From assembly GCF_054482525.1 (NCBI RefSeq), contig NZ_CM137006.1: DNA of 64,000 nucleotides; one strand, 5' to 3'. The translations under genes and the position numbers were made by a program. Under the pieces are notes generated by a model that ran no database searches, was not told the origin of the DNA, and saw nothing but the letters and a program-made list of their open reading frames with translations. This document shows, piece by piece, positions 10,933 through 35,731 of this stretch (the first letter of the stretch is position 1; each line of letters begins with the position of its first letter).

Positions 10933-12369
10933 TCAACCTTTCTTAATCATTGCCGAAATTGCGCCACAGTCATGAAACTTATCAAAACCAGTGGTGCCTT
11001 TGATATATTCAGTAACCAGAGTACCAATAATCTTAACCGTTTCTTTGTTCGTTGTGATAAAGCCCAGTGGCATCGTTACAGGCAATATTTCGGGTTGAGA
11101 AATATGATAGATAACGGCAGATAACTCATCCTCAAGATGAAGGATCTCAACATTACCATCTAACAGCCCCTCAACTAGTCCTTTAGCGTACTCATGGAAT
11201 TGCCCAAGTTCATACTTCCACTGTCTGGCAACCCGAGCATCAGCTGCATCCCGGACAGGTACGTACAGCACCGGTTTATACAGCTGCTTATCCTTCGTAG
11301 CCGACTTGCTAAGAAAATTGCTCAGGCTTGAGATAAATCGAATGCTTTTTGACCAGTAGGGATCTGATGGTGCCACCCAGATGAACGGGCTACCTCCATA
11401 ATCAGTTTTATCTCTGATACGCTGATTGAGCGCTGGTGCCAGAGCTTTCTGCAGCTTTTCCCAGTTGTTTTTAGAATAAACCGGACCTAAAAAAGTCGTT
11501 CTGCCTGAGGACGAGTATTCTTCCAGTGCTTGCATATCTTTGATAAACAACGGATTAAGTCGATTCGTTTTAGAGTCAAACAGCTTAAGCGTAAGGTCAT
11601 CGTTAATGGATTGCATGGCCTTAAAAATACTCATGGTATTGTTATGCCGTGATAACCTGGCTATCTCAACAGCCATTAACTCATGAACACATTCCGAACT
11701 ATTTAACTGTTCATAGTCTTCACGCTCGACAGCCTTACCATCGCTATCCATTTTAAATTCCGTTGTTAAACGGAGTGGTATTTGCCGCAGCTTATTAACA
11801 GAATTAACGGTATAGATAGAAGGTTGTTCTTTTCCGACCTGAACCTGCAGGTGAGACAGGTAACCTTTATCCAGGATTTGATTAAACTGGTATTGAAAGT
11901 GCTTCTCAACCAGTTTCTCACTTTGAGAAATGTTGTTGTCATCAACCTTTAATGTTACCCCTCCCCTCCAGTGGTCCTGAAAAGCCTGGTTGCTGAAGCA
12001 ACTAAATGTGGCTAAATCAAAGGATAAGGTACAGCCACTGTCCTGAATAGTTGAAAGATGCGGTATCTCGCCAACCTCTGAAAAATAGCCATTTGATTTG
12101 TCTGTTAAGGCCAGTCTGCCGTCTGAGGAGAGCGTCAATTCGCCACGCTGCACAAGATCGGAAATCGCCTCCTCTGTCTCACGGTGGGTCAGGCCGAAAT
12201 AGGTTGCTATTTGTGCTTTGCTCATCGAAGCTACATGAACAAGTCTCAGCACAAACTCCCGGATAAATGGCAGCCCCTTCTGGGAAACATAGGAAAACTG
12301 AATGTTAAACCTCTGTGCTGGCAGCAGGAAGTCAACCTCATGATAGGTAACTTTGTTATCAGATATCAT
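10933..12369 (-). CDS. hypothetical protein (478 aa), translationally coupled to the upstream helicase-domain gene
   Basis: ATG at 12369-12367 overlaps the TGA (12368-12366) of the upstream gene (ATGA overlap); no domain recognised by me. Confidence 0.7.
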
Positions 12370-15300
12370 TTCTTTTTGCCTCCCTGCTGAGCAGAGAGGA
12401 ACCTGTATCCAGCTTCCTGACCTCGCTCAGCCATATAACTTACAACGTAGCCTAATGGCAATTCTTTATTGTTTCCCTTCCAGATATCGGCATTACCCAC
12501 AATCAACAGTCGATCCATTGCGCGTGACATCGCGACATTTATACGGTTTGGAACGCGTAAGAAACCTGGGCTATGCTGCTTATCCGAACGCGTCAGTGAC
12601 AGGATAATGATCCGATTTTCCTTTCCCTGATAACTGTCAACAGTGTCAATTTTAACAATGTCCTTAAATCCCTCGCTCCAGATTTCCTGATTGAATTTCT
12701 GACGGAGTAACCGCTTTTGTTCGGCATACATACATATCACGCCGATAGCGGCTTCATCTTTGCTAACAAGTTTTGAAAGCTTAGCGACAAATTCTTCATT
12801 CTCTGACACCTGTTTAAGAACAGAAATAATCTCGTCAGCTTCACATCGGTTGTAAATGCTTGTTCCGCGATCTTCAAGATGATGTGCTCGGTGGCCCTGA
12901 TTAGCAGTATCAAGCCAGGTTACAACGCTACGTAACGCTTCCGGAGCTTGCTGATAGACATCCGGAATTGCCCGTACTCCATTCAGAAGCTTCCCGTCAT
13001 AAAACGTCTTCGATACGAGATTACCAATCGGTGGAGCCATACGATACTGGGTCATCAAAGCTGCACTCGTCTGCGCACCATAAGCAGAGTTGAAGGCTCG
13101 GGCAAAGTCACTTCGTAATACCTCGTCAATTTCAGTGCGGGAGTTATTGATACCCAGCTTCCTCGCTAATGCCGCCTTGTGGGCATCTGAGTACAATGGA
13201 GGAAGCTGCATGTGGTCACCCACCAACAGGACACGCCGGGCTGACTGCATTGCAATGGCCAGCTCACTTGAAATCGAGCGCGCCGCCTCATCAATAATCA
13301 CCCAGTCATAGATATTCTCCTGAATGCCAATGTGCCCTTGTCCAATACCAACGCATGTGCCAGCCACTAACTGCCTGGAGCGCGAATAAAACTCGTCCAG
13401 GTTCACTCGCTCTCCCGACATAGCATCCTGCATATCACGGGATATTTTAGCTAATGCTTTTACTCGTCTTGCCTCATCAGGTCTGACACCATACTCTGTA
13501 CATAGCTTGGAAATCAGAATGTCTTTTGCTGCTGAGACCTTCACGCCATTGTCCAAGTTAATCCCATACTCCTGACTCAGCTTAGAGCGGATGGAAAAAT
13601 CGAGTTCGACTGCAATATCTTTCAGTTCATTGCTCTCATTTGAATCCGTTAAATTGTTAACCTGATAGAGCAATTTCTCAAGGTGATCGATTTGTCTGAA
13701 CAAATTGAGCTCTGCAAGAACAACACCCGAAATAAATCCCGGCTCAAGACCAATAGCTTCACTCAATGCTTCAACACGGTACTTAATTTCAGCATTGAAG
13801 AGTTCGCGCTTCTCTGTTGTGATTGCGTGTGAGTACACATCTTTTAAGCCAGGGGAAACGGCTCCCTCTCGGTTGCTGAACCTGACAACGTCCAACTCTG
13901 TACCAAGCCGGGAACAATGCTTTCTGATACGCTCGGCCGCTGTATTCACAGCCTCGTGTGACTGGCTGACCAGTAAAATGCGTTTGGTATTCTGTTTCTC
14001 GATCAGGTAGTGAACAAAGGCCGCGATGAACTCGGTTTTACCGGTCCCCGGTGGCCCCTGAAGCAGGGAGAGAGGGCCATTATTGACCAGTTTGTTAAAC
14101 GCCTTTCTTTGCTGTTCATTCAGACTGATCTTGTTTCCGTGCTGATCTTCACGGTCGTATCTGGCAAAATCGGTATCGCTGAGAGTGATACCATAATTTT
14201 GAGCCGCCTGTTTGCAGGATGGATCGAACAAGTCAATTAAGTCAGGCAGCACACTTTCTCGATCTAGGAGACGTTCCAGTGCGCGTTTACGTTTCTGATA
14301 AGATGCACGAGTCGGCCTTGTACGGAAGAAGACAATATCAGAATCCTTCAGCTTGAAGGCTGCTGAACTAACTTTGACAAGACGAATCTCTTTGAGCTCT
14401 GACTTCTTAAGTGACACTTCACCAATAAATCGCTCAACACCTTCCTGATCGACCTGTAAGGCTTCGACTTCATCACTACTTCTGAAAGCACCGAGTGGAT
14501 CAACATCAGCAGAGTAAGGGAGAAGAAGCTCTCCATGAGCATCTGCAACCGGGACCACTTCACCGCTGATTTCAATGTTTGGATAAGATTCTGTTTCAGT
14601 ATCCAGAATGGCGCGCCACAGTTTCACTGTTGGGATTTCCAGCACTTCTCTTAAAGAAGGTTCAAGCGTCTGCTTATCAAGCCTTGCAAAGGTATCTTTT
14701 AGCTGAAGCGTAAGTGGCTCTTGTACCTGAACATCTTCAGTTGCGGCAATCAACTCGATTGCCCGCGCAAAAGATTCTTCTTCATTAAGCAATACTGTCA
14801 ACGCCGACAGATCCTGCGGACTGCCGGGAATAATCTTGATGCCAGTATCAATTTCGAACTGGCTTTCATCAATATCTTGCTTACGAATTGTGACGCGAGC
14901 CCGTGGCCTGAAGCCATGAACCAGCGTCTTCTGATCTTTGTTGAACACCGCAGTAAAACTGCCACCAATCCCAGAGAAAGTCACATTTACTTCAGCTGGC
15001 GCTTTAGGATTTGACTTAACTTTGACATACAGATGCCCGTTATCAGGCAGAATAGAGATTATTTCATCGGCATTTCCTGCAGTAATCTCTATCAGGTCTT
15101 GTTCTGGCACCAGGTCATTACTATCTATCGCTTTTTTAAAGCGGCCTAAATCCTTAAACCCAAAAACCGGATCTTCCAGCTCTGCTCGGATAGCATTCGC
15201 GATTGTCGGATAAATGTCTGATTCCAGCCCCCATGACATGCCTAGCAACTCGCAGGACATCTTCATCACTGCATAGTTGTCACGTTCAAAAGAAGTACAA

Positions 15301-15682
15301 TTATCAATGTATTCAGGGCTGTAACTGTGATTTTTAGGTTCGTCACCGGACGGTGAAAAATCGGGGATATCGATGAGAAAAAGCAAACGGCTCTGTGTCT
15401 CAAATATCACATTGCCAGGGTGGATGTCCCCGTGAGAAACACCCAGACCATGTAAGTGCTCAACGGCGGCGACAAACTTACCAATGAGGTCGATTTTTTC
15501 ATCATCGGGGACCGCTATTTTATCCCAGGTTTCTCCCTGTACCTGATCCGTGACCATATATAGGCTTGATGATTTTGATGCGATACCGAATTCACGAATT
15601 TGAGGTAGATACGTTGTTTTAACTGAAGAAAGCCGCTCAACCTGCTTTAAAAACTTCAGAACCTGGAAATTAATTGACGGAT
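12366..15682 (-). CDS. 3' portion of IS629-split gene: protein-kinase-like C-lobe plus SF1 Upf1-like helicase
   Basis: ORF track 12366..15557 (1063 aa); the frame stays open upstream to the IS629 boundary at 15682 (my manual translation). Motifs HGDIHPGNVIF and IDIPDF (kinase-like), GPPGTGKT (Walker A), VIIDEAA (Walker B), DTVDSYQGKE and VAMSRAMDRLLIVG (SF1 helicase). Confidence 0.75.
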
Positions 15683-15736
15683 TGAACCGCCCCGGGAATC
15701 CTGGAGACTAAACTCCCTGAGAAAGAGGTAAACAGG

Positions 15737-16063
15737 ATGACTAAAAATACTCGTTTTTCCCCCGAAGTCCGTCAGAGGGCGATTCGTATGGTTCTGGAAA
15801 GTCAGGGCGAATATGACTCACAGTGGGCGGCAATTTGTTCCATTGCCCCAAAGATTGGCTGTACACCGGAGACTCTGCGTGTCTGGGTACGCCAGCATGA
15901 GCGGGATACCGGAGGCGGTGATGGCGGGCTCACCACCGCTGAACGTCAGCGTCTGAAAGAGCTGGAACGTGAAAATCGTGAACTGCGCCGCAGTAACGAT
16001 ATCCTTCGCCAGGCTTCCGCTTATTTTGCGAAGGCGGAGTTCGACCGCCTCTGGAAAAAATGA
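15737..16063 (+). CDS. IS629 transposase OrfA
   Basis: 108-aa [25 protein letters not shown]... with HTH and leucine-zipper-like C-terminus; IS3-family OrfA. Confidence 0.85.
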
Positions 16064-16950
16064 TGCCACTGCTGGATAAGCTGCGTGAGCAGTACGGGGT
16101 CGGACCGCTATGCAGCGAACTGCATATTGCCCCGTCAACGTATTACCACTGTCAGCAACAGCGACATCATCCGGATAAACGCAGTGCCCGTGCGCAGCGC
16201 GATGACTGGCTGAAGAAAGAGATACAGCGCGTATACGATGAAAATCATCAGGTGTACGGTGTGCGTAAAGTCTGGCGTCAGTTGTTACGGGAAGGTATCA
16301 GAGTGGCCAGATGCACTGTGGCACGTCTCATGGCGGTTATGGGACTTGCCGGTGTTCTCCGGGGTAAAAAGGTCCGTACGACCATCAGCCGGAAAGCCGT
16401 TGCCGCAGGCGACCGCGTAAACCGTCAGTTCGTGGCAGAACGACCTGACCAGCTGTGGGTGGCTGATTTTACTTACGTCAGCACATGGCGGGGCTTCGTC
16501 TATGTGGCGTTCATCATTGATGTGTTTGCCGGATACATCGTGGGGTGGCGGGTCTCATCGTCTATGGAAACGACATTCGTGCTGGATGCTCTGGAGCAGG
16601 CGTTATGGGCCCGTCAACCGTCCGGCACAGTCCATCACAGTGATAAAGGTTCTCAGTATGTATCGCTGGCCTACACACAGCGGCTTAAGGAAGCCGGATT
16701 ACTGGCATCAACAGGAAGTACTGGTGACTCGTATGACAACGCGATGGCGGAGAGCATCAATGGCCTTTACAAAGCGGAGGTAATACACCGTAAGAGCTGG
16801 AAAAACCGGACAGAAGTGGAGCTGGCCACACTCACGTGGGTGGACTGGTATAACAATCGACGATTGCTGGAAAGGCTGGGCCATATCCCACCGGCAGAAG
16901 CAGAAAAAGCTTATTATGCTTCCATCGGAAACGATGATCTGGCAGCCTGA
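16060..16950 (+). CDS. IS629 transposase OrfB (DDE integrase domain)
   Basis: 296-aa ORF overlapping orfA; DDE transposase core; normally expressed as an OrfAB fusion by frameshifting. Confidence 0.85.
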
Positions 16951-16992
16951 GTTCACAGATAAAACACTCTCCAGGAAACCCGGGGCGGTTCA

Positions 16993-18649
16993 GATCGTAT
17001 CCCTGTCCCCCAACATTCAGCCAAGCCTTCACGAGCCTTCCTTTCGAGATATAGACTTCTTTGTCGACTGTTTCGACCTGAAACTGAAAGCCATCGTCTT
17101 CCGGGTATTGACGAGCGTGATTGATAGCATGTCGGTAAGGGTCAAGCTCAGTATCATCAAATGTTGGAATATCCTTGCCAGCAGGTTCGGCTTGTTTCAG
17201 GGCATCAAAGAATTCTGTTGCAGAAGTGAATTTTGCGGCAACGGCATCCCGTAATACAGATGAATACCAGTGCTGGCTGTTTAGCATGTTGTCCTGTACT
17301 TTCTCCAGACTCTTTGGCGACATGCGCATACCGCTAAATAAGTGCCAGGCGACAAGGCCCAGAGTATGAACATCTTGCTGAAAAGGCGTAAGCTCGCCCT
17401 TATCAAGCATGTCTTTTACGTGGACTGCACCTACGGATAAAAGCTTACGGTAATCGCCAACCGTTCCGGCTGGCTGGTGGTAAGCCGAAATAAAGTTCGA
17501 AAGAGCAACTTCTTTTGAAGGTGAAATCCACAGACTGTGATCGGCGACATCCCTGTGCGCAATTTTCATCTCATGGAGATCACTAAACTTTGCAATGAGC
17601 AGTTTCACCACATTCAAGCGGTCCATATCAGAAAAGTTCTTACCATATTTTCCGATAAACTCATTAAACCGGACATGACCCGGCGGAACTTCGTAGACTT
17701 CGCTATACTCGGCCGTCACCTCGTCTTTCTGAAAACTCGTCAAAGACCTGAGACAGTGGTTATACAGGTCACGATTCTGGTGATTGATGTGCTGTAACAC
17801 TTCGCGCTCACGTGAAACAATCTGAGCTCGTCCTTCCGGGGTATTCGCTTTCGTTCCCGTTATATTTCTAAAATTCCATACTCTGAGTAGCGCTTCGCTG
17901 TTCGTTGATATCTCAGATTTTGCCAGATATTCTCGATACACCTTTTTAGGATGTTCGAAAATCATATCATTAGCTTCATAGCCATTAACTCTCAAGGCTT
18001 TTGGTGCCGTCTGAGGCCCTAGGAACAAATCATCGAAAAGATGGAAATCCTTGTTAAGAACCTTGGTAGCTGGGTGCGGTTTGAAATAGTTATTGAAGCT
18101 CCCGCGATCGGCAAACTTCAGGAAATCTTTTAACGAGATCGTATGGCGCCGTTGTTCCTCCGGCAGCGCGCTGAAATCTGCATTGCCGGTCATCACAACA
18201 AAAAAATGAACAATCGGGATATAGCCTTTGTTCGTAAAACGGTCTACCAGACGCTTGAGTTTTTTGTCCAGCATGAATTTTTTGCTACGAGTCACGCTTA
18301 CTGGCGAGCGCCCCATGTTCTTATCACCTTTAAACCAAGTATCTCCGCGTGCGGTTACAGGCTGATGGTTCCAGTCTTTCAGTTCAACAATGATCACGTT
18401 GCAGTGTGTTACAATAACTAAATCGAATTCCCCCTCTTTTTTTGCCTCAACAAATCGAAAACCTGCATAACCTTTCCAAGGGAACATTTCATTGCCGATA
18501 AAACCATAGCTTTTTAGCTGCTCACTAATTGAACCGCTACGGAAAGGCTTGTCAGGCTTAGATACGTTGACTGAAAAAGCAGCTTTTATTTTCTCGATAG
18601 CCAATACTTCCTGTTCTTGTAAGCCACCATCCCACATTTCTACTTCCAA
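16993..18649 (-). CDS. 5' portion of IS629-split gene: NERD nuclease-related domain plus protein-kinase-like domain
   Basis: TTG start at 18649 preceded by AAGGAG; NERD-like signature EFDLVIVTHCNVIIVELKDW; kinase-like HRD at KIAHRDVADHSLWI and DVHTLGLVAWHLFSG. The annotated ORF runs on into IS629 (to 16832), so its last about 50 codons are IS-derived. Confidence 0.75.
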
Positions 18650-19311
18650 CGGTGTTCTCCTTAAATTTCAGTAAAAATAAGGTCATTTATTCTGGTCAAT
18701 ATGGCAGGTTTCGATGTTTATAGTTCTGAATACTATGGTGTTTTACACGTTCATTCTGGTTATTATACGTAGAAAAGAATTTATCGGGCAACGCCGAGAT
18801 GACGCGGCCCCGTTAAACCGTGTAGTGGTAGATGATGAGATCAGATACAGGGATCAACTGACGGTGAGCGCAGTCCCCACATTTTATCCGGAGTTTACCG
18901 CTATTCCCGGCTGCCATTCGTTAGCACAGGCCCGCAAGTACCCTGATTTGCCGCTGGTTTTGCTTTCCCATCGAAGGGCCCATACATCATCACGCCCGCG
19001 AAACAGTCGACAAAATAACGCAACTTTCTCATCCGTGGATAATACGGAAACGCACTGCACAGGACTCTGCGGTTTACGTCACCATTCAATCCCATAAGCT
19101 TCAAGTTATGTTTGCCCTCAGTGCAGCTAATTCATCACTGTCAGATTTATGAACCATATTCGTTACCTGTATCCGATCCACTGAGGCACCACGGCAGAAA
19201 TTCGGGTCCCCTACACTGATGACAAAGCGCCCCGCCCTCTTCTGCCTATTAACTCAAGCACCTCCCAACAACTTACAGAAACTTAATTCTAATACCTAAT
19301 ACAACTGTAAT

Positions 19312-19875
19312 TCAGTTATGTCGTGGTCGGCCCCGGTTGCTTTTTTCGGGAAGCCTGCTACGGCCCAGAATAATACCGTGTTCTTTCTGATCCTGTTTAG
19401 CCAGGTAGCTAAGGGCGTAACGTAAACCGTCTACCGCAGACTTATCACTATAGTGAATCACGTGATCGATACGCACCGGGTATTTGTCTTTAGTACTGCA
19501 CAGGTGAAAATAACCCTCCCCTTCCGTGATCCGACTCCAGATATCTCCCAGTTGCCTGGATATCCGATAAAATTTCTTGTGACGTTGCCCATCCAAGTAG
19601 CCGATAAAATGAATATGAAGTCCCTTGTTTGACGTATATTCCATTACCCAGTAATATCCCGCCAGCATCGTTTGGGTTTCACTAAGTAAGCGGTGCATTT
19701 CAATACACATACTGTGCCTACAGGAATGACCAAAACTGGGCGTGTCTTTCCTGTAGGCAAAATCAATTCTGAAAGGTAACAGTTTAGAAAAACGTTGAAA
19801 CAGACCTTCCATGTGTTCATTCACGTCTTTCAGAATCATGAAGTCCATTTCGTAATTGGGATTAGCATTATACAT
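19312..19875 (-). CDS. island-associated protein (YfjJ-like / inovirus Gp2-type family, by recollection)
   Basis: 187-aa ORF; character of CP4-57-type island backbone proteins; family assignment from memory only. Confidence 0.45.
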   Translation of the reverse strand: MYNANPNYEMDFMILKDVNEHMEGLFQRFSKLLPFRIDFAYRKDTPSFGHSCRHSMCIEMHRLLSETQTMLAGYYWVMEYTSNKGLHIHFIGYLDGQRHKKFYRISRQLGDIWSRITEGEGYFHLCSTKDKYPVRIDHVIHYSDKSAVDGLRYALSYLAKQDQKEHGIILGRSRLPEKSNRGRPRHN

Positions 19876-20695
19876 TTTATAGTCCTTACTTTATAAAAGT
19901 TACAGGAAGGTGGAATTACATAAATACTGAGAGTACAGAAACGCCGTACCGCGGCATTAATAAACGAGGTAACCAGCAGCACAGACAACCTGATAAAACT
20001 GTTTCGTATTACCTCATTACTCCAAAGAGGTAATATTTCAGAGTACAGTAAGACTCACTTAAACTGAGGACCAGTACGAATTACAATGGTAAAAACACAC
20101 CTCATAGAATTGAGTTTAAGGAAGTACCATTCAATCACTTACAGGAAGTAATCTGACATTCACAAAAGCCAGTATCGGGTAGCCACAGGCAACACCGCTA
20201 TTAATACTTCTGTACCATTAAGTAAAAACAGCGACCCAGCTTAAGGCCTCTACAGATATTTAACTTCACCATAAAAATGATGGTATACAGACCATACCCC
20301 ACACACCATAAGAATATTATTTCATACAGGAAAGATTATATTTTTTCATACCTATAAACTGTAACAGAGCCATAACATACTCTAATAGTGTTCCGGTACG
20401 TAACCAGTGTTAAGTGCGTACAAGACAACATAACAGATCACATAACTTCCACTAATAATACTAATTAACCTAAATTATTTATTGAACACGAAAACAATGA
20501 AGGCCCCACCTCACCTCAGACTAAAGCCGACAATATCCTGAGCAACACTCTATCCAATAGTAAATAGTGGTTACACCAGTTATATTTACTGACTGACCTG
20601 TACCAGAGTTTTCTAATACAACGCTGACATGGTAAAGACATTAGTCTCCTCCGCAAGTAGCAGAGGAGACTATATGTACTCAACGATTAAGTCGT

Positions 20696-22147
20696 TCAGA
20701 GGTCAAAGTTAGGTGCGACACACAACGTTTTTCCCTCAATAACCGGTACAACTCTGTTTTGTTCATACAGTAAATCCAGTAACCAGTTGATTTTATCCTT
20801 TTTCCGGAAACGGTTCGGACCACGCTGTAAAATGTCATTTTTTTTCATACAGAGGATCCCCTTCTCAATACAATAGCTTTTTATCCAGTTGAAAAGTTCA
20901 AGCTCCTCTGGAATGAGTCGCACAGGTACGGTCAGGGCAGAGTTGTCAAAAGTTAACGGATTAGACAACCGCACATACTCATTACCGTACCATATTGCTA
21001 ATTCTCTCGCCATTTCTGCAGTGTAAGGGGAAATCTCCCCCTCTTCACCGCTCGAATGGTAAATAAGTCCTGCCAATCTTGCCATATACTCTGCATTTTT
21101 AGCAGCATATTCCCGGCAATGTCTTAAAGGCCCCAATCCCCCCAGCTTCGATTCCACATCATTGTAATAATCCGTCCAGATTCTGGCAGCCTGAGGAGAA
21201 AAGTGAAGGCAACGTCGTTCACCACTCATCGCCAGACTTTCATCAATAAGCTCATTGATCCTCTCTTCAAACAAATCCTGATACTGTGATGAATAATTAT
21301 CTCCGGTTATTATCCTTGTCCCCTGCGTTGATGTTGGTTGACACATCAAAAACCTTGCATGATGTCCTGACGTTTTCACAATTTCTTTTTTTCGCGTACA
21401 AAAACCTTTGTGGTAAACATCAGGCTGAATCATCACCGATATCGTCAGTCTTGGCTCCTTCAAATTAATTCCGGGAGATGATTTCCTGTCGATGAAAAGA
21501 GAACCTCCATCCCACAAAGTGTTAATAATTCCCAGTTTACTCATGGCCCGGCTGTCAAAAATTACCCCCCCTTCACTGGATACAAGAGCAAAAGAGCGAT
21601 TGCTATCGGAGTAATATTTTAACATTCCCTCTATCGTTGTCTCATTAAAAATTGTTCGACGTATCTGCGGCGGAACAGGAGGTTTATTCAGATGCGTTTC
21701 AAGCTCTGATTCTGTTGCCTTGTAATCTTTACCGGCACGAATCTCTTTATGAAATTTTGATTCCAGCGCTTTTTGTTTTTGCTCCCATATTTCCTTTTCT
21801 GTACTGTAATTCTCAACCAGTTTCGCGTATTCTTCCGCCAGGGCTTCATCCCTGAGATAAAATGCTTTCATAAACACTTTATCCACGGTCGTTTTCCTTT
21901 CACCGGAATCAGCCAGAATCAGAGAGTAAAGATTAACAGGCCCATGTAAATTTCCAGGTCTGCATACGTCAATCTGATTCTGACAGGCAATTGAGATCGC
22001 TGTTAATGCGGATGTTGCCACCATAGCCAAAGGTGCCTGTGTATTTTTTTGAGTTTCAATTATTGCATTTCTCACCAGCGGTGGTAGTGCATATATCGGA
22101 TAAGGATTTTCTGGTGCAAGTAAGCACATAAAAGCCTCTCTTTTCAT
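20696..22147 (-). CDS. DUF3987-type (YfjI-like) island protein
   Basis: 483-aa ORF; resembles the large P-loop-less YfjI/DUF3987 proteins found beside AlpA in P4/CP4-57-like islands. Confidence 0.55.
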   Translation of the reverse strand: MKREAFMCLLAPENPYPIYALPPLVRNAIIETQKNTQAPLAMVATSALTAISIACQNQIDVCRPGNLHGPVNLYSLILADSGERKTTVDKVFMKAFYLRDEALAEEYAKLVENYSTEKEIWEQKQKALESKFHKEIRAGKDYKATESELETHLNKPPVPPQIRRTIFNETTIEGMLKYYSDSNRSFALVSSEGGVIFDSRAMSKLGIINTLWDGGSLFIDRKSSPGINLKEPRLTISVMIQPDVYHKGFCTRKKEIVKTSGHHARFLMCQPTSTQGTRIITGDNYSSQYQDLFEERINELIDESLAMSGERRCLHFSPQAARIWTDYYNDVESKLGGLGPLRHCREYAAKNAEYMARLAGLIYHSSGEEGEISPYTAEMARELAIWYGNEYVRLSNPLTFDNSALTVPVRLIPEELELFNWIKSYCIEKGILCMKKNDILQRGPNRFRKKDKINWLLDLLYEQNRVVPVIEGKTLCVAPNFDL

Positions 22148-22347
22148 TAATGGGTTAGTAAAATAGCAGCAAATCCCGCTACAATAGCGAAAATAGCTGC
22201 TATTCAGACCTGATGCTCTGAGAAATACAGAGCATTTGTAGATCTGATGTTTAATAAACCGATAAGGTTAATTCAGTGAAGACTGTATTATTCACCACGA
22301 AATATCATTCATATTTCTCATTCTTAATACCTCCAGAAATTATTTCA

Positions 22348-22680
22348 CTAATACCTTTCCCCCGGTCTTTTCCCTTTCTCCAGAACCATAGTGTAAATAT
22401 TAACGGCCCCACGTAAATTTCCGGGACTGCATACGTCAACCTGATTCTGACAGGCAATTGACATCGCTGTTAATACTGACATTGCAACCAGAGTCAGAGG
22501 TACTTGTTTATTGTATTGAACTTTAATTATTGCATTCCCTATCATTGATGGTCATGCATATACTGAATACGGCATATCCGGTTTGATGTAAGGCATAAAT
22601 GCTTCCTTTTTCGTAATACGTTTCGGTTATAGCAGCAATTACCGCTACAATAGCGACAATAGCTGCTCTTTCAACAATGA
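22348..22680 (-). pseudogene. diverged tandem duplicate of the 5' end and promoter of the DUF3987 gene
   Basis: 22380-22670 aligns at roughly 80 percent identity with 21900-22200; the 65-aa ORF 22348..22545 repeats the N-terminus of the 483-aa protein (VPLTLVAMSVLTAMSIACQNQVDVCSPGNL versus APLAMVATSALTAISIACQNQIDVCRPGNL). Confidence 0.5.
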
Positions 22681-22771
22681 ATGCTGGAAATTCTGTTTAT
22701 CAATTAAACTTCTGGCTAAATTGTTCTTATGCTTCTTTTTCCTCCTGAGGTGATCACGTGATGACAAAAAC

Positions 22772-23080
22772 TTATCTGCTCATGGTCATATCTGAAGAAA
22801 GCGTATGTCTCACTTCGTCATTAACACCTTTGACTGCTGATCTGGCAGGTACAGTATGTAAAGTAAGCCATTCGTCAATAGCTGATGAACGCCAGCCCAC
22901 AGAACCACTACCAAGACGTACCGGCCTGGGGAAGGTTGCATCGTAGTATTTCGATAACGGATTCATTTTTTCGTAAATTGTCGAACGAGATATACCTAAC
23001 AATTGGCTCAGTTCAGGCATCCGTAAGATGCGTGAAGGAGTCCTGCAGTGTCCGGATTGATCTGGCATTTTATCCCCCAT
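22772..23080 (-). CDS. alpA: AlpA-family transcriptional regulator / excisionase-like
   Basis: ORF 22772..23152; the region RILRMPELSQLLGISRSTIYEKMNPLSKYYDATFPRPVRLGSGSVGWRSSAIDEWL matches the AlpA HTH family; start codon uncertain. Confidence 0.6.
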   Translation of the reverse strand: MGDKMPDQSGHCRTPSRILRMPELSQLLGISRSTIYEKMNPLSKYYDATFPRPVRLGSGSVGWRSSAIDEWLTLHTVPARSAVKGVNDEVRHTLSSDMTMSR

Positions 23081-23229
23081 AGTGTGGTGAACTGTCGTTA
23101 CAGTTTGTATTCCCCGGGTAAATTTGTCTGCGTAAAAAAATGGGTTGAGCAAAAAGACAATAAATAATTAAAAATCAATATGATAGAAAACGACAGCATT
23201 AGTGTTATTTTACTTTTCCCTTATCGCTG

Positions 23230-23990
23230 TCGATTCTCATTATCATTCATGGCAAAAAAACAGCAAAAGAGGCCCTGGTAATGACTCCTGTCAGTAGTAC
23301 ATGTGTTTTCGATAAATGAACCAATGGCTTTTCGTGAATTTCCAGGGAGCGTAAAAAGTAAATCGTTTTCCGGGCAGGTCGTTTGATGTGAGTACGAAGT
23401 GTCAGATTGTTGCGCTCAATGCGCCGGGTAAATATCTTGCCGACAAGATGCTTATCCTGTGGCATTTCTCTGGTATAACTGCTCCGGTTGTCTCTGGTTA
23501 TCATGCCTGCGGAGAATGGCTTCAGGAATTCCGGCAACTCACGGCATGTTTCATCAGTGCGAGGACCAAAAGTGTAAGCCAGCACACCGTCAGCTTTGGT
23601 CTTATACGCGTACCAGTGCCACTGCTGACGAGCTTTGTTTTCGACAAAACTCCATTGTTCATCAAGTTCACAGATAAGTGCCACATCGACACTGGCGGCT
23701 GGAGATATGGTTACTTTACGTGGTGAGCGTTTTTTAAAGTGAGAATGACGGTGTTGATATCCACCTTCAGCGTTCTGGAGCTATCGCGAACCCCGGCTCC
23801 GTTATGAACCATTTCAACAATTTGCTCTTTAATGCCTGGTTTTCGGGTTTCGTAGATGTAATTCAGTTGAAATACACGTTTGCAGGATTAGCACTGGAAA
23901 CGCTCATGATCTGAGGTGCTGTGATCATAACGGTACACTTTATAGGAATTACAGCGGGGAGAATATACTGTAACTGTTGCCATATGGTCT
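23230..23990 (-). mobile_element. IS1-family element remnant (InsB-like ORF and InsA-like frame with premature stop)
   Basis: ORF 23247..23684 resembles IS1 InsB (ELDEQWSFV..., FTRRIERNNLTLRTHIKR); an upstream minus-strand frame starting MATVTVYSPRCNSYKVYRYDH is InsA-like but stops early; boundaries approximate. Confidence 0.45.
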
Positions 23991-24179
23991 CCAGATACCA
24001 ATAGAATACAACATTAATCTATCGTCAGAAGGCATCACCGGGGCCTTCTGACATAATCTGTTAATACGTGTACTATTACCCTGTTCAGAAAACATTGATT
24101 CAAAAATGAAAACCAGTTAACAGAAAAGCAAAATGATATAATGTTAAAATTTTATATAGTGCAATAAAAGGAGAATGTT

Positions 24180-25997
24180 ATGTATAATTTTATCACTATA
24201 ATGTATGATGTCTTTTCATGTTTTGGTGTTCTGGCTAAAAACCAGAATAGCCGTGACATCCGAAATATTAAAAATTTTTCCTCACATCAACATTCACTGG
24301 GCGACATGTTTGATGAATTAATAAACATTATTGATAAAGAACAAGTATTGAGTAAAGAACAACGAAAAGTTATATTTAGGAGATATGAAGATCTCTATGT
24401 TAAGCTAATGCACTATTCTGTTTTTACAGACAAAACACATCAAATAATAAAACAAAAATATTTTAATGACATTGTACCAATGATTCTCGCACTCGACATC
24501 AGGAACACATATCGCCCGGATAATGAGATGGCATTTTACTATCATATTCATTCTTTTCTCACTCAGATACCGGATAATGAGGATGATATATATCATGCTG
24601 CAAGGACATATCTGCGAAATTACGTTAAGTTATGTTTATCCGGATACACGCCAGCGAATGCGCATTTCAAAGATATCTTTGATGGCGTATATGAATTCAT
24701 TCGTAATATTCGCAAAAACAGTACACCAGGAAAAACAAAACTTATCGCAACTATCAACACATGCAAAGAAACCTGTAAACATCTGCTTTATTTAAGTAAT
24801 GAAGACAAGGAAAAAATAATTTCTGACTTAGATAAAGTTCAGGTTGCATGTTATTATCTCACTATATTACTGGCTTTCGAAAGACGAACTTCATTAACAA
24901 GCACCCTGGCAACTTTATATAAAATGCTGATAAGCGAAAGAGAAGTTTCAGAATATGAATGCCAGTTATTATATTTAACCAACCCAATAGATGTAATGAA
25001 TATACTGAACAAATACATATATTACTTTCCTAATGAGAACTCACCATTTTATACACTGAAAATTGACAGTGCATTATCGTGGGATGCCATTGACGCAATA
25101 CGAGACTATAGTATTTCTGATATTTATCTTTATCCTGAACAAAAAACAATAAATTGTGTCGTTGAGATTGAAAACATTGTCTTTGGCGGTTACATTTATA
25201 CATTGAACAACGGCGTCACATTACAAAACATAGAAAACTCTTTAAAAGATTCTTCATGCCATTATGTCTTAAATGGCTATACAGAATTTGTTAACTGTTT
25301 GAGACAACTTACTTCAGGAAAGACTGAAAGTGTTCATCGCACCATCAATAAACTGAACTATGAGAAATTACCTTTTGGATTTATCATTGCCGCGTTTGCT
25401 ATACTAAAGATAGCATTTAAAATAAAATTCAGTAAAAATCATGTAAATATCCGAGCATTATTAAATGACATCAATTATTTTATGACTTATCAGGGCGAGT
25501 CCATTAACCTTATTTCACTGGATCACGAATACCCAGAGTCCTGTCTTCAAAATGACACAAACACATATTTATTAGGAAGAGTAATATTTCTGTATAACTC
25601 AATGATTTATAAGTTCATAAACTGTCAGGAACATGAAACCAATAACATTCACTCAGCTATGATAAATAACCTATTACAGGAAGTTGATATAGCCCTTGGT
25701 AAAATAAATGACATTATAGACAGCAGAAACATATCAACCCCCCATGAACTGGCAAATATTCTTACCCGCGAAAAAATACTTACAACACGGGAAAAAAAAG
25801 GAAACCTGATAAGCCTGTTTGATGGATTCACTTTATTCCATTGTGTTGGAATGATAACCTTTCTTATCCATTATCTCAGAACACCTGAAGAAAAAGTTGA
25901 AAATATATTTATGTTATATGGTGCAGATAAAAACAATAAACTACGCAGAAGACTGATTTATGACGCACTAGGAATAATTCAGTCTCAGCAGGAGTGA
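24180..25997 (+). CDS. hypothetical protein (605 aa), strongly AT-rich orphan gene
   Basis: ATG at 24180 preceded by AAAGGAG (24167-24173); no motif recognised; composition far more AT-rich than the backbone. Confidence 0.6.
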   Translation: MYNFITIMYDVFSCFGVLAKNQNSRDIRNIKNFSSHQHSLGDMFDELINIIDKEQVLSKEQRKVIFRRYEDLYVKLMHYSVFTDKTHQIIKQKYFNDIVPMILALDIRNTYRPDNEMAFYYHIHSFLTQIPDNEDDIYHAARTYLRNYVKLCLSGYTPANAHFKDIFDGVYEFIRNIRKNSTPGKTKLIATINTCKETCKHLLYLSNEDKEKIISDLDKVQVACYYLTILLAFERRTSLTSTLATLYKMLISEREVSEYECQLLYLTNPIDVMNILNKYIYYFPNENSPFYTLKIDSALSWDAIDAIRDYSISDIYLYPEQKTINCVVEIENIVFGGYIYTLNNGVTLQNIENSLKDSSCHYVLNGYTEFVNCLRQLTSGKTESVHRTINKLNYEKLPFGFIIAAFAILKIAFKIKFSKNHVNIRALLNDINYFMTYQGESINLISLDHEYPESCLQNDTNTYLLGRVIFLYNSMIYKFINCQEHETNNIHSAMINNLLQEVDIALGKINDIIDSRNISTPHELANILTREKILTTREKKGNLISLFDGFTLFHCVGMITFLIHYLRTPEEKVENIFMLYGADKNNKLRRRLIYDALGIIQSQQE

Positions 25998-26183
25998 AGA
26001 GTTAAACAGGCAAATTATTTTTTATAAAAAGGGGATTGTTAAGTAATCCCCTGTTAATCAAAATACGCTTTCCTGACGATCTGATAATTATCAGCTCAAT
26101 ACATTTGACATAAAAGCGGTTTCTTAATTACTACTGCTACGATCACATATCAAATCATGATCGTACAATATACATTTTCACTA

Positions 26184-27386
26184 TTATTTATTCACAATTT
26201 GAGACATCACATAATCCGCCCATGCCTGCATCATCGGTACACGCTGCTCCAGTAGATCAGTACGATGATATGCCGCCTCAACCTTATTTTTCAGCGTATG
26301 AGCGAGCGCCCTTTCCGCCAGATCCCGCGAATACCCCTGTTCGCTACACCAGTCCCTGAATGTTGAGCGAAAACCATGTGCCGTGGCAACTCGCCCCGGA
26401 ATGTCACTGACGGCTTTCTTTTTACGCAGAAAACTTGTCAACACCATATCGGAAAGGATCTGCTGCTTTCTGGGTGAAGGGAACACCAGTTCATCATGCA
26501 GGCCACGTATATTTTCCAGAATGTAAATAGCCTGCCGGGATAAAGGAACACGATGCTGTAGCCTAGCTTTCATTCTTTCTGCAGGTATAGTCCATACCCG
26601 CTTATGAAAATCAATTTCAGCCCAGCGCATTCCCCTGGCTTCGCCCGAGCGAGTTGCTGTAAGTATCACCATTAATAACAGTGCGCGGGTAACATTATAA
26701 GGTTCATCGGTATACACACTGGTCGCCACAAAAAGCGGTAACTGCCTCCAGGGCATTGCGGGTTGGTGTTCATCACGTCCTCTTGTCTGCTGAGGAAGCA
26801 AATGGTCAACCACATCAACAGGATTTGCTACACAAAAACCGTGCGCCCATCCCCACTGCATAACAACATGAATGCGCTGTTTAACCCGGCTTGCCGTTTC
26901 TGACAAGGTTAACCAGACTGGACGCAGTGTTTCTGCCACGTCCGCAGCCGTAATCGAATCCAGCGTTTTTGCTCCCAGTTGAGGAAACGCGTAATTCTCA
27001 AGCGTCGATAACCACTGCCTTACATGCTTTGGATTTTCCCATCCAGGAGACAGTTCTGCATGTACACGCCTGGCTGCATCGGCAAATGTTGGGATAGCGA
27101 CTTTCTCAGATTCAGCCTTTTTAATCTCCAGAGGATCATCACCTGCAGCAAGTTGCTCTCGCATTATCCGGGCAGTACGTGCAGCTTCAGCAATACTGAC
27201 CTCTGGGTAAGTTCCCAATCCAGCATTACGTCTTTTTTGTGTCACCGGACTTACATAACGAAAAACCCATTTCCCCCGCCCCTTTACTGAAGAAGGATGA
27301 AGGGTCAGTCCGGTAATTCCCCCATGGGGCAATGGTTTGTCATCAGGTTTGATATGTCTTGCTTTCGTATCCGTCAATACTGCCAT
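26184..27386 (-). CDS. int: tyrosine site-specific integrase (P4/CP4-57 IntA-like)
   Basis: 400-aa ORF with phage-integrase C-terminal catalytic region (...HGFRSTFRDW...LAHTL...AYHRTDL); N-terminus lies about 160 bp from the island-end direct repeats. Confidence 0.85.
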   Translation of the reverse strand: MAVLTDTKARHIKPDDKPLPHGGITGLTLHPSSVKGRGKWVFRYVSPVTQKRRNAGLGTYPEVSIAEAARTARIMREQLAAGDDPLEIKKAESEKVAIPTFADAARRVHAELSPGWENPKHVRQWLSTLENYAFPQLGAKTLDSITAADVAETLRPVWLTLSETASRVKQRIHVVMQWGWAHGFCVANPVDVVDHLLPQQTRGRDEHQPAMPWRQLPLFVATSVYTDEPYNVTRALLLMVILTATRSGEARGMRWAEIDFHKRVWTIPAERMKARLQHRVPLSRQAIYILENIRGLHDELVFPSPRKQQILSDMVLTSFLRKKKAVSDIPGRVATAHGFRSTFRDWCSEQGYSRDLAERALAHTLKNKVEAAYHRTDLLEQRVPMMQAWADYVMSQIVNK

Positions 27387-27546: not shown

Positions 27547-27606
27547 CCCCCTCACCGCCATATTCAAAGAAGAGCTCGTACGAAAGTGCGAGCTTTTTTT
27601 TCGCAT
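27547..27606 (+). repeat. direct repeat copy 1 containing a tRNA 3'-end-like motif (TCCCCCTCACCGCCA) and a terminator-like hairpin plus T-run
   Basis: Near-identical to 27724-27785 (one substitution and one indel); the ...CTCACCGCCA end resembles the acceptor/CCA end of tRNA-Ser. Confidence 0.5.
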
Positions 27607-27723
27607 ATTGCACTCCAGGGGGGATGAGAAGCCCCGACCGGGGTTCGACAACTGGCGCAGCCAGTTGGACAGACCACGAACGCAGTGAGTGGGCTGCCCG
27701 CAGGGCGAGCGAAGCGAGTCAAT

Positions 27724-27785
27724 CCCCCCCCTCACCGCCATATTCAAAGAAGAGCTCGTACGAAAGTACGAGTTTTTTTTCGCAT
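27724..27785 (+). repeat. direct repeat copy 2 containing a tRNA 3'-end-like motif (AATCCCCCCCCTCACCGCCA) and a terminator-like hairpin plus T-run
   Basis: See copy 1; this copy has a longer match to a tRNA-Ser T-arm/acceptor 3' strand, but no complementary 5' acceptor strand (GGTGAGG) exists upstream, so it is not an intact tRNA. Confidence 0.5.
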
Positions 27786-28083
27786 TTTATCTGCCTGTAC
27801 GGCAGTGAACGGTATAAAAATCGAGTTTTTCTTTCGGTTGGCTTTCTAAGCTGCCTGTACGGCAGTGAACTCAAATACTACACGTCTAGCCCGTTGTTAA
27901 TAAAGCAAAACCATCTCATTTTCCTGCTACCACCCTTTTTTATCCTTACCTTCCCGCAGCACTAATTATCAACAACTTACAATCATCATCAAAAAAAGGG
28001 TCTGAACCTCCTCCACCCCATAAATAAAAAGTCCGTAACCTCTTTCGAGATTACGGACTTCACCAACCTACCTAACAATTAGA

Positions 28084-30813: not shown

Positions 30814-31497
30814 TTATATCATTTAGTTAATTAGTCTTTATTTTTCATTATGTTGCAAATAACAAGCCCGTCAAAAACAGTGATATTAACTACACCATTA
30901 ACTACACCGCTTCACGAACAATATCGAACAACCGCGAACAAAGATCAACACGCTTTAATCATTATCATTTTCCGGCTATCCGTCATGAAGCTGGTGGATG
31001 ATCTGCGTGGTGATTTCCACCATTCAGAGCAGGGGCGGTCATCATGACCATGCCATAACAAAAACCCCATATTCGTGGTTTTTCTGTGTCGGGGCTATTC
31101 TGCTGTTGCCGTGCTGGTGGATATTCTCCGGTATGCGGCTCCCCATATCGGCATCAGGCCCACCAGCGTGAAGCGTTTTTCATTTTTCGCGGGTATAAAA
31201 AATCGATGGGGCTGGCAGTCCTGAAGACGTCAGGGTACGGAGATTTGACCCGCCCCTCCCTGTGCATGAGCACAATAAGTAACCGAAGGCGGAATTCCGC
31301 CCTCGGTACTTACATATGAGAAACGATATTTCTTCCACCGATACCCTTTATTTGGGTATTGCGAGTAAGCCCCAAAATCTGGGTGTTACTCTTACTACCC
31401 AAACTACGGGTAGTTTCCGTAGTTTCATGGTCGAGTTGCAAATCTGCAACTCACCCACCAGCCAACGCAATTTTGCGTTATCGGGAATATCAGCAAG

Positions 31498-31785
31498 TTA
31501 CCGCCGCAGTCGTTCCGGCTTCTTCCACTGGTAAGTATTTTTCGCGCTCTCCCTCCGTTGTTGAGAACGGCGACGGTATGCCAGCAACTCAAGGACTCTG
31601 GTTCGTATGTTGCGCATATCCACGCCGTTAAGCTCAATACCATCACGGCGCATCACCTCAGCAACAACACGCGCGTAATTTTCAGCGGTGACTGTATCCG
31701 GCTGCGCGGCCTGTTCGTCAGCCAACTGGCTGATTCCACCAGCACAGCGGATTAATCGCAGTATTTCAGATTCGGTCATTATCAT
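31498..31785 (-). CDS. hypothetical protein (95 aa), packaging-module associated
   Basis: ORF whose start overlaps the small-terminase gene stop (4-bp overlap); function unknown. Confidence 0.45.
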   Translation of the reverse strand: MIMTESEILRLIRCAGGISQLADEQAAQPDTVTAENYARVVAEVMRRDGIELNGVDMRNIRTRVLELLAYRRRSQQRRESAKNTYQWKKPERLRR

Positions 31786-32270
31786 GCCTGTTTTGCGACC
31801 TCATTCACTACGTCATTTTTTACCATCCGGCTGATAATCTGATTACACAAATCGTCAATAATTGACTGCACTCTGTTTACTGCCATCGGTTTAAGCCCGG
31901 CATCACGTGCCAGAATATTGGGGAGTTTTGCCAGTTCCTCGCTTACGATTTCCCCCCATATAGCCATCTCTTTTCGCACATCATCGGCGGGTATGAGTTG
32001 CGCCGTTTCCTGTTCGAACTTGAGGCGTTCACGTTCGGACTGATACCAGGCCTTACGGTCATGTGGCTCCATTTCTTCCAGTGATGCCGGAACGGGAAGA
32101 TCAAGAAAACAGGTCAGAATGTCAGTCACCCGATAGAGTTTCAGCTTGTCATGCCCTCCGGCTGGCTGGATGTTTTTCAGCCTTGCCGCCGCAGTCTGAC
32201 GACATATTCCCGCTATCGCCGCCAGTTGATTAATGTTCAGCATCAGATTTTTCAGTTCTCGATCCATACC
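31782..32270 (-). CDS. phage terminase small subunit-like protein
   Basis: ORF 31782..32354; likely start at MDRELKNLMLNINQLAAIAGICRQTAAARLKN (HTH typical of TerS/Nu1-like proteins). Confidence 0.55.
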   Translation of the reverse strand, partial: GMDRELKNLMLNINQLAAIAGICRQTAAARLKNIQPAGGHDKLKLYRVTDILTCFLDLPVPASLEEMEPHDRKAWYQSERERLKFEQETAQLIPADDVRKEMAIWGEIVSEELAKLPNILARDAGLKPMAVNRVQSIIDDLCNQIISRMVKNDVVNEVAKQA

Positions 32271-32523
32271 CGCTCCAGAATGTTTTAAACATGCATCTTG
32301 CGAACAACTTTCAGAAGAGGTCAAAAAATGCGCTATATGTTGAGCATAAAACAAGCAAAATTAACATGCCAAAAATAAAAATACTTAAAATTCAATACAA
32401 TATGAAGATGATGATGACGAATGAAAATGCAAAAACTAGCCTTTTTCCGCGCCGCTCCCGCCCCGTGGCAGACCACTCCACCGGGAGGACCCGTAAAAAA
32501 GGCGGCTGTCGCCGCCCTTGTTG

Positions 32524-34437: not shown

Positions 34438-34643
34438 TGCTCCCCCCCAGATGCAAAACCATTCTTATCAAGCCACGCGTTAACCGCGTGTCTGACAATC
34501 TGCGCCGCACCTGGTAATGGTTGGTCAGGATGATGATTTATGTGGTCGATCCTGTACTGCTTAAGGCGCATAACGGTCTGCGCATCCAGATGAACGGAAC
34601 CACCTTTTACCTCGCCTGTGTTCAGGTCGTTAATACAATTCAC
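34434..34643 (-). CDS. hypothetical small protein (69 aa)
   Basis: Stop overlaps the capsid-fusion start by 4 bp (translational coupling). Confidence 0.4.
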   Translation of the reverse strand: MNCINDLNTGEVKGGSVHLDAQTVMRLKQYRIDHINHHPDQPLPGAAQIVRHAVNAWLDKNGFASGGEQ

Positions 34644-35066
34644 AGTAACTTCCTCTTACTGACTAAACTGCGCGCATTATTGATCGATAAAAGTGGTAGA
34701 TAAACATATTTCTATCATAAAAATAGATTAATCAGATTCAGACACAAAAAAGCCGGAGAGAATCCGGCATAAATATCCCGCCATCTGAACACGTTTTGCA
34801 CAGGCAACTCCATCTGGCAGGTGAAAAACAAATTTATTTATATATTTCAATTAATTGCAAACTGGTCTAATGACAGGGAGAAAAAAATATTGTACAGGTG
34901 AAAACAGAAATAACTTTTAATTATCAATAAATTACTACACATGCTGCCGCCGCCATGAAAATGCAAAAACCAGCCTTTTTCCGCGACGCTCCCGCCCCGT
35001 GGCAGGTCACTACACCGGGAGGACCCATAAAAAAGCCGGATTGCTCCGGCTTCTGTTACTCGTTGC

Positions 35067-35489: not shown

Positions 35490-35731
35490 GCTGTCTGCTC
35501 TCCGGTTTTAACGTTGATGGTTGTCACCTGTTCCGCTTCGGCAATCTCCCGTTCTGTCAGCGTGGCAAAGTTTGCAGCTGCCGTTGTCATGAATGAGCTA
35601 ATCAGTTCGGGATGTGCTTTCGCATATCCTTCCCCGGCGTTGCGGTCGATGATTTTTATCGACACCCTTAACCAGTGTTCCGTCAAATCAAGGGCGTGCG
35701 ATTGTGATTTTTTTGTGTGCTTCGCTGTCAT
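35486..35731 (-). CDS. hypothetical small protein (81 aa)
   Basis: ORF with a 4-bp overlap to ssb; sits between the iteron origin and ssb. Confidence 0.4.
   Translation of the reverse strand: MTAKHTKKSQSHALDLTEHWLRVSIKIIDRNAGEGYAKAHPELISSFMTTAAANFATLTEREIAEAEQVTTINVKTGEQTA

Follow-up and report, generated by a model that had tools for sequence, protein, structure and literature searches.

Stl, the master repressor of the Staphylococcus aureus pathogenicity islands (SaPIs), is a protein of ~250-280 aa with an N-terminal helix-turn-helix (HTH), encoded divergently from the excision/replication operon and highly divergent between islands of one class. In the Shigella SRL pathogenicity island (PAI), the alpA gene is known as rox and its product serves as the excision activator; Rox/AlpA-type proteins are established stimulators of excision, as reportedly described by Luck et al. 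in 2004. The subject of this study is ORF605, an AT-rich gene of 605 codons (24180..25997, plus strand, ATG start) in a stretch of 64,000 nucleotides (contig NZ_CM137006.1 of RefSeq assembly GCF_054482525.1; hereafter the window), which is transcribed divergently from an alpA gene in an island with a P4-family integrase, and for which homologues make up what we call family X. In the published table of open reading frames (ORFs) of the SRL PAI, int is followed by orf2 (DUF3987), orf3 (rox), orf4 ('no similarity') and orf5 (Gp2), with int and rox named as characterized genes (PMC6980539); this gene order matches the X-alpA-DUF3987 arrangement. The integrase of the O-islands OI-43/48 is 99% nucleotide-identical to that of the SRL PAI, a 14-bp repeat flanks both, and spontaneous excision of OI-43/48 has been documented (PMC3064760). 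For P4-like satellites and phage-inducible chromosomal islands (PICIs), PMC10803314 cites integrase-proximal defense hotspots (Rousset 2022; Fillol-Salom 2022).

Set against these systems, ORF605 shows both likeness and difference. As with Stl, the X gene is divergent from the alpA operon at all loci inspected, and the role we propose, that of keeping the island quiescent until a cue, would be similar; in contrast to Stl, ORF605 is 605 aa long, with no HTH detected, no operator repeats found and no sequence similarity. ORF605 also resembles the cargo of the P4-like and PICI hotspots, in that it is AT-rich and, in the window, is flanked by the integrase and the core genes, with the content of its slot varying among some relatives, but X keeps its pairing with alpA across genera, usually away from int, and ORF605 has no defense homology in PADLOC. 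The uncharacterized YfjH of the K-12 element CP4-57 similarly has intA on one side and alpA on the other, and is separated by 43 bp from alpA-yfjI-yfjJ, from which it diverges; it is 318 aa in length and its homology to X was not detected by BLASTP or profile comparison. By these comparisons X would fall outside the defense families, the Stl-type repressors and the IS481 transposases, while being partly like hotspot cargo. The X-alpA class of P4-integrase islands is widespread and takes in the E2348/69 island, the Shigella SRL PAI and OI-43/48, the tellurite/urease islands of O157:H7; the 611-aa clade of X corresponds by position to orf4 of the SRL PAI, an assignment made from gene order and Shigella cluster members rather than from the YSH6000 sequence. 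What is new here is family X itself, its fixed place beside alpA, its evolutionary behavior and a fusion found in its long forms.

Family X and its pairing with alpA

ORF605 has been annotated as 'hypothetical' or 'no similarity' since 2001, and the original prediction called it an orphan. That description fails because full-length homologues at 18-33% identity exist, and, as judged from their alignments, ORF605 is a member of a previously undescribed family. Sister clades (B and C, with ORF605 in clade A) are found in E. coli and Shigella as proteins of 607 and 611 aa with 28-30% identity to ORF605; full-length alignments of the E. coli proteins with it have E-values of 7e-66 (611 aa) and 2e-73 (607 aa), and Shigella flexneri and S. 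dysenteriae contribute members to the 611-aa cluster. These paralogues were found by synteny, in islands with a 94-98%-identical integrase in enteropathogenic E. coli (EPEC) E2348/69, PK8277 and 1070/13, where they are annotated as 'hypothetical protein' (607-611 aa). Word-indexed searches with ORF605, either as a single sequence or in a profile of four sequences, went no further than relatives of at least 91% identity and missed the 28-30% paralogues, and a word-indexed search with clade B returned clades B and C only. An exhaustive search of 1.84 billion representatives with a 12-sequence profile yielded 58 proteins at E<=1e-3, 23 of them at E<=1e-30, with ~20 further full-length relatives at 18-33% identity among the matches. 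Scanning of the GTDB representatives placed family X in Kluyvera intermedia, Edwardsiella hoshinae and a Xenorhabdus sp., so that hosts, spread across Enterobacterales, comprise E. coli, Shigella, Kluyvera, Edwardsiella and Xenorhabdus, plus metagenomic sequences. The same scan matched a 3.2-kb contig labeled as a Bacillota metagenome-assembled genome; since this contig is short and carries the same alpA and DUF3987 neighbors, we suspect mis-binning. An ORF605-centered alignment had no match in GTDB species representatives or IMG/VR viral contigs, and a search of GenBank phages with ORF605 had none either. In a plasmid collection, only four E. coli records matched ORF605, at least two of them chromosome-sized, and the annotation was hypothetical protein at most.

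Searches for known domains agreed with the earlier view that ORF605 lacks a recognizable catalytic motif, as no family match was obtained in Pfam, NCBIfam, PHROGs or PADLOC. For ORF605 the best that Pfam offered was a sub-threshold match to CC4_RECK (E 0.25), and curated-family hidden Markov models had no match for the X domain in the sister clades or in 10 distant homologues. Neither ORF605 nor clades B and C matched any family of PADLOC-DB v2; across 24 members of family X, PADLOC gave two matches only, both HTH-type (mad1 and WYL) and in one member each. Sequence searches of the PDB with ORF605 and two family profiles yielded only noise.

The arrangement of genes around X is far more constant than its sequence. 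Loci were inspected in the three E. coli clades, in 8 distant representatives of 50%-identity clusters and in 4 GTDB loci; at every one, X is divergent from alpA, which is followed by DUF3987 and usually then by yfjJ. The divergence from alpA is kept in 8/8 of the distant cluster representatives and in 4/4 of the GTDB loci (12/12). This alpA-led operon (alpA-DUF3987-YfjJ) is the island's excision/replication operon. The X-alpA gap, 98-463 bp in other loci, measures 1111 bp in the window because a remnant of an IS1-family insertion sequence, whose IS1-like end 'ggtaatgactcc' lies at about 23278, sits inside it; this remnant is present in the X-alpA intergenic region of all clade-A loci inspected.

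The original prediction regarded ORF605 as cargo in a typical cargo position. Its placement between an IS1 remnant and the integrase is indeed as described, with an IS1-family pseudogene on the left and a tyrosine recombinase on the right, but the word cargo does not suit a gene that is the divergent partner of alpA and that in relatives is usually not beside int. The usual gene order in X loci is int - yfjJ - DUF3987 - alpA <-> X, which is thus probably ancestral. Compared with E2348/69, the window shows 97% identity for int, 90% for gp2, 66% for alpA, 25% for DUF3987 and 28% for X, and a 5.7-kb cassette of X, alpA and DUF3987 (20500-26194) is inverted relative to its flanks, with the result that X abuts the integrase. 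X lies between int and the first core gene in the window and all clade-A loci, whereas in clades B and C and in 12/12 distant loci, DUF3987, YfjJ or other genes stand between X and int. The int-adjacent position hence appears to be a derived feature of clade A. Recognizable defense cargo occupies other slots: DUF4062/Abi_alpha/Abi_C genes lie between int and yfjJ in one relative (L092), and Mokosh lies beyond gp2 in the window.

The intergenic region between X and alpA retains traces of shared sequence. Aligned from E. coli, Edwardsiella, Xenorhabdus and Kluyvera, it has a mean column identity of 49% with 12 invariant columns, a weak and control-free signal; likewise weak and without a control is a block resembling GGAAACCAACCGGAG that occurs just before X in most loci. 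On the alpA side of the IS1 remnant, the sequence at 23127-23144 resembles by eye a conserved block of the ancestral intergenic region, and the leader of ORF605 contains the block 'aaaaatgaaaaccag' (24098-24112), which resembles a conserved block 5' of family members elsewhere. There are thus two blocks like conserved X-upstream sequence, one on each side of the IS1 remnant, which points to an arrival of ORF605 together with its leader, next to an alpA that retained its own half of the switch region. The leader also harbors consensus promoter-like candidate sites at 24048-24076 and 24133-24160, including a TGnTATAAT-like 'tgatataat' (24134-24142) as a candidate promoter element.

Two further observations concern the neighbors of alpA and X in other islands. 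In three E. coli islands, at thrW and elsewhere (L012:9935-12249, L013 and L014), a 543-aa protein divergent from alpA, together with a 198-aa protein, replaces ORF605; Pfam and PADLOC have no match for either, and the 543-aa gene is frameshifted in 2/3 of these loci. Homology of ORF605 to either YfjH or the 543-aa protein was considered and rejected by BLASTP and hhalign. In another three loci, those of distant members of family X (L086, L088 and L090), one or two H-NS-like proteins are encoded beside the integrase or X; these may be island-borne modulators of xenogeneic silencing.

Three distant relatives (P0148, P0157 and P0163; 865-933 aa) are longer than the rest and bear an N-terminal extension of 260-320 aa that matches the IS481 transposase model NF033577 (E 3.6e-20, 2e-23 and 2.5e-12, respectively). 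The likeness to IS481-family transposases ends there, as the scores of the long forms (47-83 bits) are far below the family cut-off of 224 bits, their DDE residues look unconserved as judged by eye, and ORF605 is without that domain. Among the long forms, P0157 alone matched HTH models in Pfam. Through this extension, the X domain is linked with DNA binding in some lineages at least. As for ORF605 itself, low-confidence AlphaFold models predict almost entirely helical secondary structure (~30 helices), with a short insert of ~40 aa in clade A that includes some predicted beta strands. A transmembrane protein was considered and rejected: in clades B and C, the sequence at the Kyte-Doolittle peaks of clade A (397-415 and 543-561) is amphipathic or charged, and hydropathy, used here with no dedicated signal-peptide predictor, revealed no conserved transmembrane or signal-like segment in family X. 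As these hydrophobic segments are specific to clade A, family X is probably soluble and ORF605 probably a soluble, cytoplasmic protein.

Expression, distribution and evolutionary rate of ORF605

ORF605 is a real, expressed gene and more than a chance ORF. Its protein is detectably expressed without induction, with a phosphoproteome match in the literature; a search of the literature on the locus tags, yfjH, yfjI and alpA found only this match and papers on island excision. The ratio of nonsynonymous to synonymous substitution rates (dN/dS) was 0.185 between ORF605 and a 94%-identical allele (L009), 0.166 between the sister clades and 0.236 within one sister clade. Full-length protein of 605 aa is encoded by 50/52 complete metagenomic copies, the other two having one frameshift and one in-frame deletion of 2 aa, and the cluster of the full-length protein holds 8897 member sequences vs. 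mostly singleton clusters for frameshifted variants. Rare variants of 541-546 aa result from frameshifts in a homopolymer-rich stretch near a C6 tract (25737-25742) and an A8 tract (25792-25799), deleting the last 60-65 aa, and may represent sequencing errors, decay or phase variation; the paralogues conserve the C-terminal 65 aa that these variants lack, which identifies the 605-aa protein as the functional form. IS1 insertions within ORF605 occur in two genomes.

The gene was found in 1036/5426 complete E. coli genomes (about one-fifth), at 99% identity or more in 1010 records, with carriers that include O157:H7, O111, O121, enterotoxigenic E. coli (ETEC), extraintestinal pathogenic E. coli (ExPEC) and avian E. 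coli, while the sister clades occur in EPEC E2348/69 and Shigella. Its GC content is 0.30-0.34 along its length vs. 0.43-0.53 in the integrase, clpA and the backbone (whole gene 0.324; third codon position 0.30). Thus, the features that first drew attention to ORF605, namely a long ORF with a strong Shine-Dalgarno and a base composition unlike the backbone, were both borne out, and neither of the two circumstances that had been named against it, homology to a housekeeping protein and an artefactual ORF, was found; it is an island-borne gene of foreign composition.

Within the alpA module, X is, by the distances compared here, the fastest-evolving gene. Normalized similarity of X was 2-8 times below that of DUF3987 in the same pairs of loci, as exemplified by L082/L083 (X 0.27, DUF3987 0.64, alpA 0.74), L089/L090 (0.35, 0.52 and 0.65) and L085/L093 (0.06, 0.48 and 0.34). 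Over 10 loci, the distances of X and alpA were correlated in a Mantel test (r=0.42, p=0.018). Polymorphism within clade A was assessed in 52 loci of 98.7-100% nucleotide identity, mostly metagenome assemblies. Polymorphic codons in ORF605 were nonsynonymous in 49 cases and synonymous in 10, with a ratio of nonsynonymous to synonymous polymorphism (pN/pS) of 1.26, as compared with 12 and 31 in int (0.12), 6 and 4 in alpA (0.46), 12 and 10 in yfjI (0.34), and 2 and 5 in gp2 (0.10); the excess over the integrase is significant (Fisher p=2e-8). Of the nonsynonymous sites in ORF605, 26 are non-singleton, and at 18 the minor allele occurs in 8 or more of the 52 loci, so that assembly noise can be dismissed as their source. 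Their distribution along the protein is uneven, with 1 change vs. 8 expected in residues 388-486 (p=0.003), 0 vs. 4.2 expected in residues 554-605 (p=0.015) and 12 vs. 5.7 expected in residues 1-70. The two nearly unchanged stretches largely coincide with blocks conserved across the clades. Such a distribution is compatible with diversifying selection acting on a portion of the protein, or with constraint that was partly relaxed once the IS1 split had occurred.

Proposed function and competing explanations

Taken together, the divergent pairing with alpA, the correlated distances and the rapid evolution lead us to propose that X takes part in the AlpA-controlled excision/replication switch of the island, as a sensor or modulator, a tentative reading to which we assign a probability of roughly 0.38. 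According to this proposal, X would act on or with AlpA and the replication proteins and thereby set when the island excises or replicates, in a role like that of the divergent SaPI regulator Stl but without membership of the Stl family. Its rapid amino acid divergence may stem from an arms race with whichever phage or host cue it recognizes. As short forms of X, including ORF605, have no detectable DNA-binding domain, we surmise that they would act via protein contacts. The alpA-partnered X would then be a candidate controller of island stability, excision and possibly phage-linked mobilization, in islands that carry tellurite resistance, urease, Iha, multidrug resistance and defense systems. 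A more specific version, in which X is a non-HTH sensor and the 'Stl-equivalent' of Gram-negative P4-integrase/AlpA/DUF3987/YfjJ islands, restraining AlpA-driven excision and replication until released by a phage or stress cue, strikes us as improbable in its full form. Were it true, classic pathogenicity islands, OI-43/48 of O157:H7 and the Shigella SRL PAI among them, would have to be regarded as satellite-like elements open to induction, and the specificity of island induction would be set by the hypervariable X.

Several findings weigh against a role in the switch. The divergent slot is not always filled by X: K-12 CP4-57 has the unrelated YfjH there, and elements with a 88-95% identical yfjI carry the unrelated 543-aa and 198-aa proteins, which is the behavior of a swappable accessory gene. 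Co-inheritance of X with alpA is also expected from physical linkage alone, and the distances of X and DUF3987 are only weakly correlated (Mantel r=0.22, p=0.10). The pN/pS of clade A fits relaxed constraint, for instance after the IS1 split, as well as it fits an arms race. Operator-like repeats were not found in 7 X-alpA intergenic regions, and ORF605 and most of family X are without a detectable HTH, with the DNA-binding extension carried by 3 of ~25 clusters. Neither a fold nor a domain can be assigned to ORF605, as Pfam, NCBIfam, PHROGs, PADLOC and PDB sequences were all negative, and AlphaFold2, run either on the single sequence or on a 12-sequence family alignment, gave a predicted local distance difference test (pLDDT) of ~37 and a predicted template modeling score (pTM) of 0.23-0.25 in both cases; at this pLDDT, the models are unusable for fold comparison.

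The closest competitor, a possible though in our estimate doubtful one, is that ORF605 is a single-gene effector against phages or mobile elements, acting for example by abortive infection and carried constitutively by the island, with its proximity to alpA reflecting no more than a stable insertion slot; the original prediction had named a defense protein, along with a toxin and a secreted effector, among the possible roles. An AT-rich, fast-evolving gene with the nonsynonymous excess described above, expressed without induction and sitting in a slot that can hold unrelated proteins in related islands, would suit such a role, and these islands do carry defense genes, including Mokosh in the window, AbpAB/RnlAB in CP4-57 and Abi_alpha/Abi_C in L092, in keeping with the integrase-side hotspots cited above. 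In contrast, 0/24 family members match a PADLOC effector model, an enzymatic or pore-forming domain is not detectable in ORF605, and a fusion to a transposase-derived DNA-binding region is not a typical effector architecture. Retention of the alpA pairing down to 18-20% identity at all the distant loci is unusual for hotspot cargo, and recognizable defense genes, where present, are in other slots. Should ORF605 nonetheless be a defense effector, it would represent a new single-gene system without a known domain.

Adjoining as it always does the alpA-DUF3987 operon, usually with YfjJ included, X could instead be an accessory of island replication or mobilization that works with DUF3987 and YfjJ in origin recognition, loading or helper-phage hijacking. 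The fusion of some members to a DNA-binding, transposase-derived domain and a cytoplasmic, all-alpha protein as predicted by modeling are compatible with this idea, which we nevertheless consider unlikely: X is transcribed divergently and outside the replication operon, its distances follow alpA better than DUF3987, it has no similarity to any known replication protein, and the YfjI lineage of the window differs from the E2348/69 type, yet X is homologous in both.

Less likely still is that the clade-A gene is a decaying remnant, uncoupled from alpA by the IS1-family insertion and drifting neutrally. The elevated pN/pS, the splitting of the switch region by the IS1 remnant in all clade-A loci inspected, the C6/A8 frameshift alleles that lose the C-terminal 60-65 aa and the IS1 insertions inside the gene in two genomes would all be expected of such a remnant. 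A 1.8-kb AT-rich ORF that is nonetheless intact in 50/52 copies, with a full-length cluster of thousands of members and frameshifted variants mostly as singletons, and with detectable expression of its protein, is not easily reconciled with neutral drift; the same holds for the nearly substitution-free residues 388-486 and 554-605, largely matching the cross-clade conserved blocks. Finally, a secreted toxin or type III effector in virulence, to which the carriage of the family on islands of enterohemorrhagic E. coli (EHEC), EPEC and Shigella might point, is very improbable, since clades B and C do not share the hydrophobic stretches of clade A, a conserved signal-like or transmembrane segment is absent, and the family is not restricted to EHEC/EPEC-type pathogens but often found in ETEC, ExPEC and avian strains of E. 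coli and present in Kluyvera, Edwardsiella and Xenorhabdus, while X holds a fixed place in the regulatory module of the island.

Feature coordinates, island end and other elements of the window

The features of the X-alpA locus and of the adjoining island end are listed below.

Table 1. Features of the island around ORF605, with positions numbered from the first nucleotide of the window.
Feature	Position	Strand	Remark
YagK/YfjJ, inovirus Gp2-type replication-initiator-like protein	19312..19875	-	
YfjI-family DUF3987 protein	20696..22147	-	E 3e-84; PHROG 'DNA helicase'; second gene of the alpA operon
alpA/rox-type HTH regulator	22772..23068	-	Phage_AlpA E 9e-19; conserved divergent partner of X
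alpA-proximal part of split switch region	23069..23277	.	contains 'gtctgcgtaaaaaaatgg' at 23127-23144
IS1-family transposase pseudogene	23291..23983 (about)	-	annotated in identical RefSeq loci
ORF605 leader/promoter region	24011..24166	+	promoter-like sites predicted
Shine-Dalgarno AAAGGAG	24167-24173	+	6 nt before the ATG of ORF605; read directly
ORF605	24180..25997	+	605 aa
GC-rich hairpin with T/A runs on either side	26030..26052	.	terminator-like; between the convergent 3' ends of ORF605 and int
P4-family tyrosine integrase	26184..27386	-	400 aa; 97% identical to E2348/69-type integrase
14-bp direct repeat CCCCCTCACCGCCA (3' end of tRNA-Ser serW/serX), integrase-proximal copy	27547..27560	+	marks the island end
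Second copy of 14-bp direct repeat	27727-27740		within RtT-like repeat

At the island end, the 3' end of tRNA-Ser and its terminator occur twice (27547-27610 and 27727-27790), on either side of a unit that bears an RtT small RNA annotation; the 14-bp repeat contained in them is the one described as flanking OI-43/48 and the SRL PAI (PMC3064760). A tRNA gene beside the integrase was considered and rejected: ARAGORN found no intact tRNA in the 64-kb window, and ~27605-27740 is an RtT-type repeat with a copy of the tRNA-Ser 3' end. Beyond it, two type I-F CRISPR repeats (27788-27870) flank one spacer-sized segment and are followed by clpA; the Rfam CRISPR-DR4 model matches at 27843-27870, and this is a residual array with no cas genes nearby.

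On the other side of the alpA module, a type I Mokosh anti-phage system occupies 10933-18649, with mkoB at 10933..12369 (minus strand). Its mkoA is split by an IS3-family insertion (~15683-16993), which carries an ALIL pseudoknot (16018-16134), into a C-terminal part (12366..15557) and an N-terminal part (16832..18649); the gene is intact in strain AH65 (1652 aa). Beyond gp2 (18650-19300 in the window; L002:13799-16159), related islands encode a protein of 783-786 aa with an archaeo-eukaryotic primase (AEP) and a DEAD-helicase, annotated as 'TOTE conflict system', and in the AH65-type island, which the window matches, this TOTE-type gene is reduced to a pseudogene fragment.

Relative to strain ETEC1738, the window further contains an insertion of ~11 kb (30818-41785) between clpS and cspD, most of which is held by only 51 complete genomes. 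RefSeq annotation lists a prohead protease/major capsid fusion, a primase, an integrase, and ash-family and DUF1441 proteins within it, along with a C4 antisense RNA (38695-38782) and isrK (38807-38883), so that it looks like a capsid-forming satellite of the PICI type.

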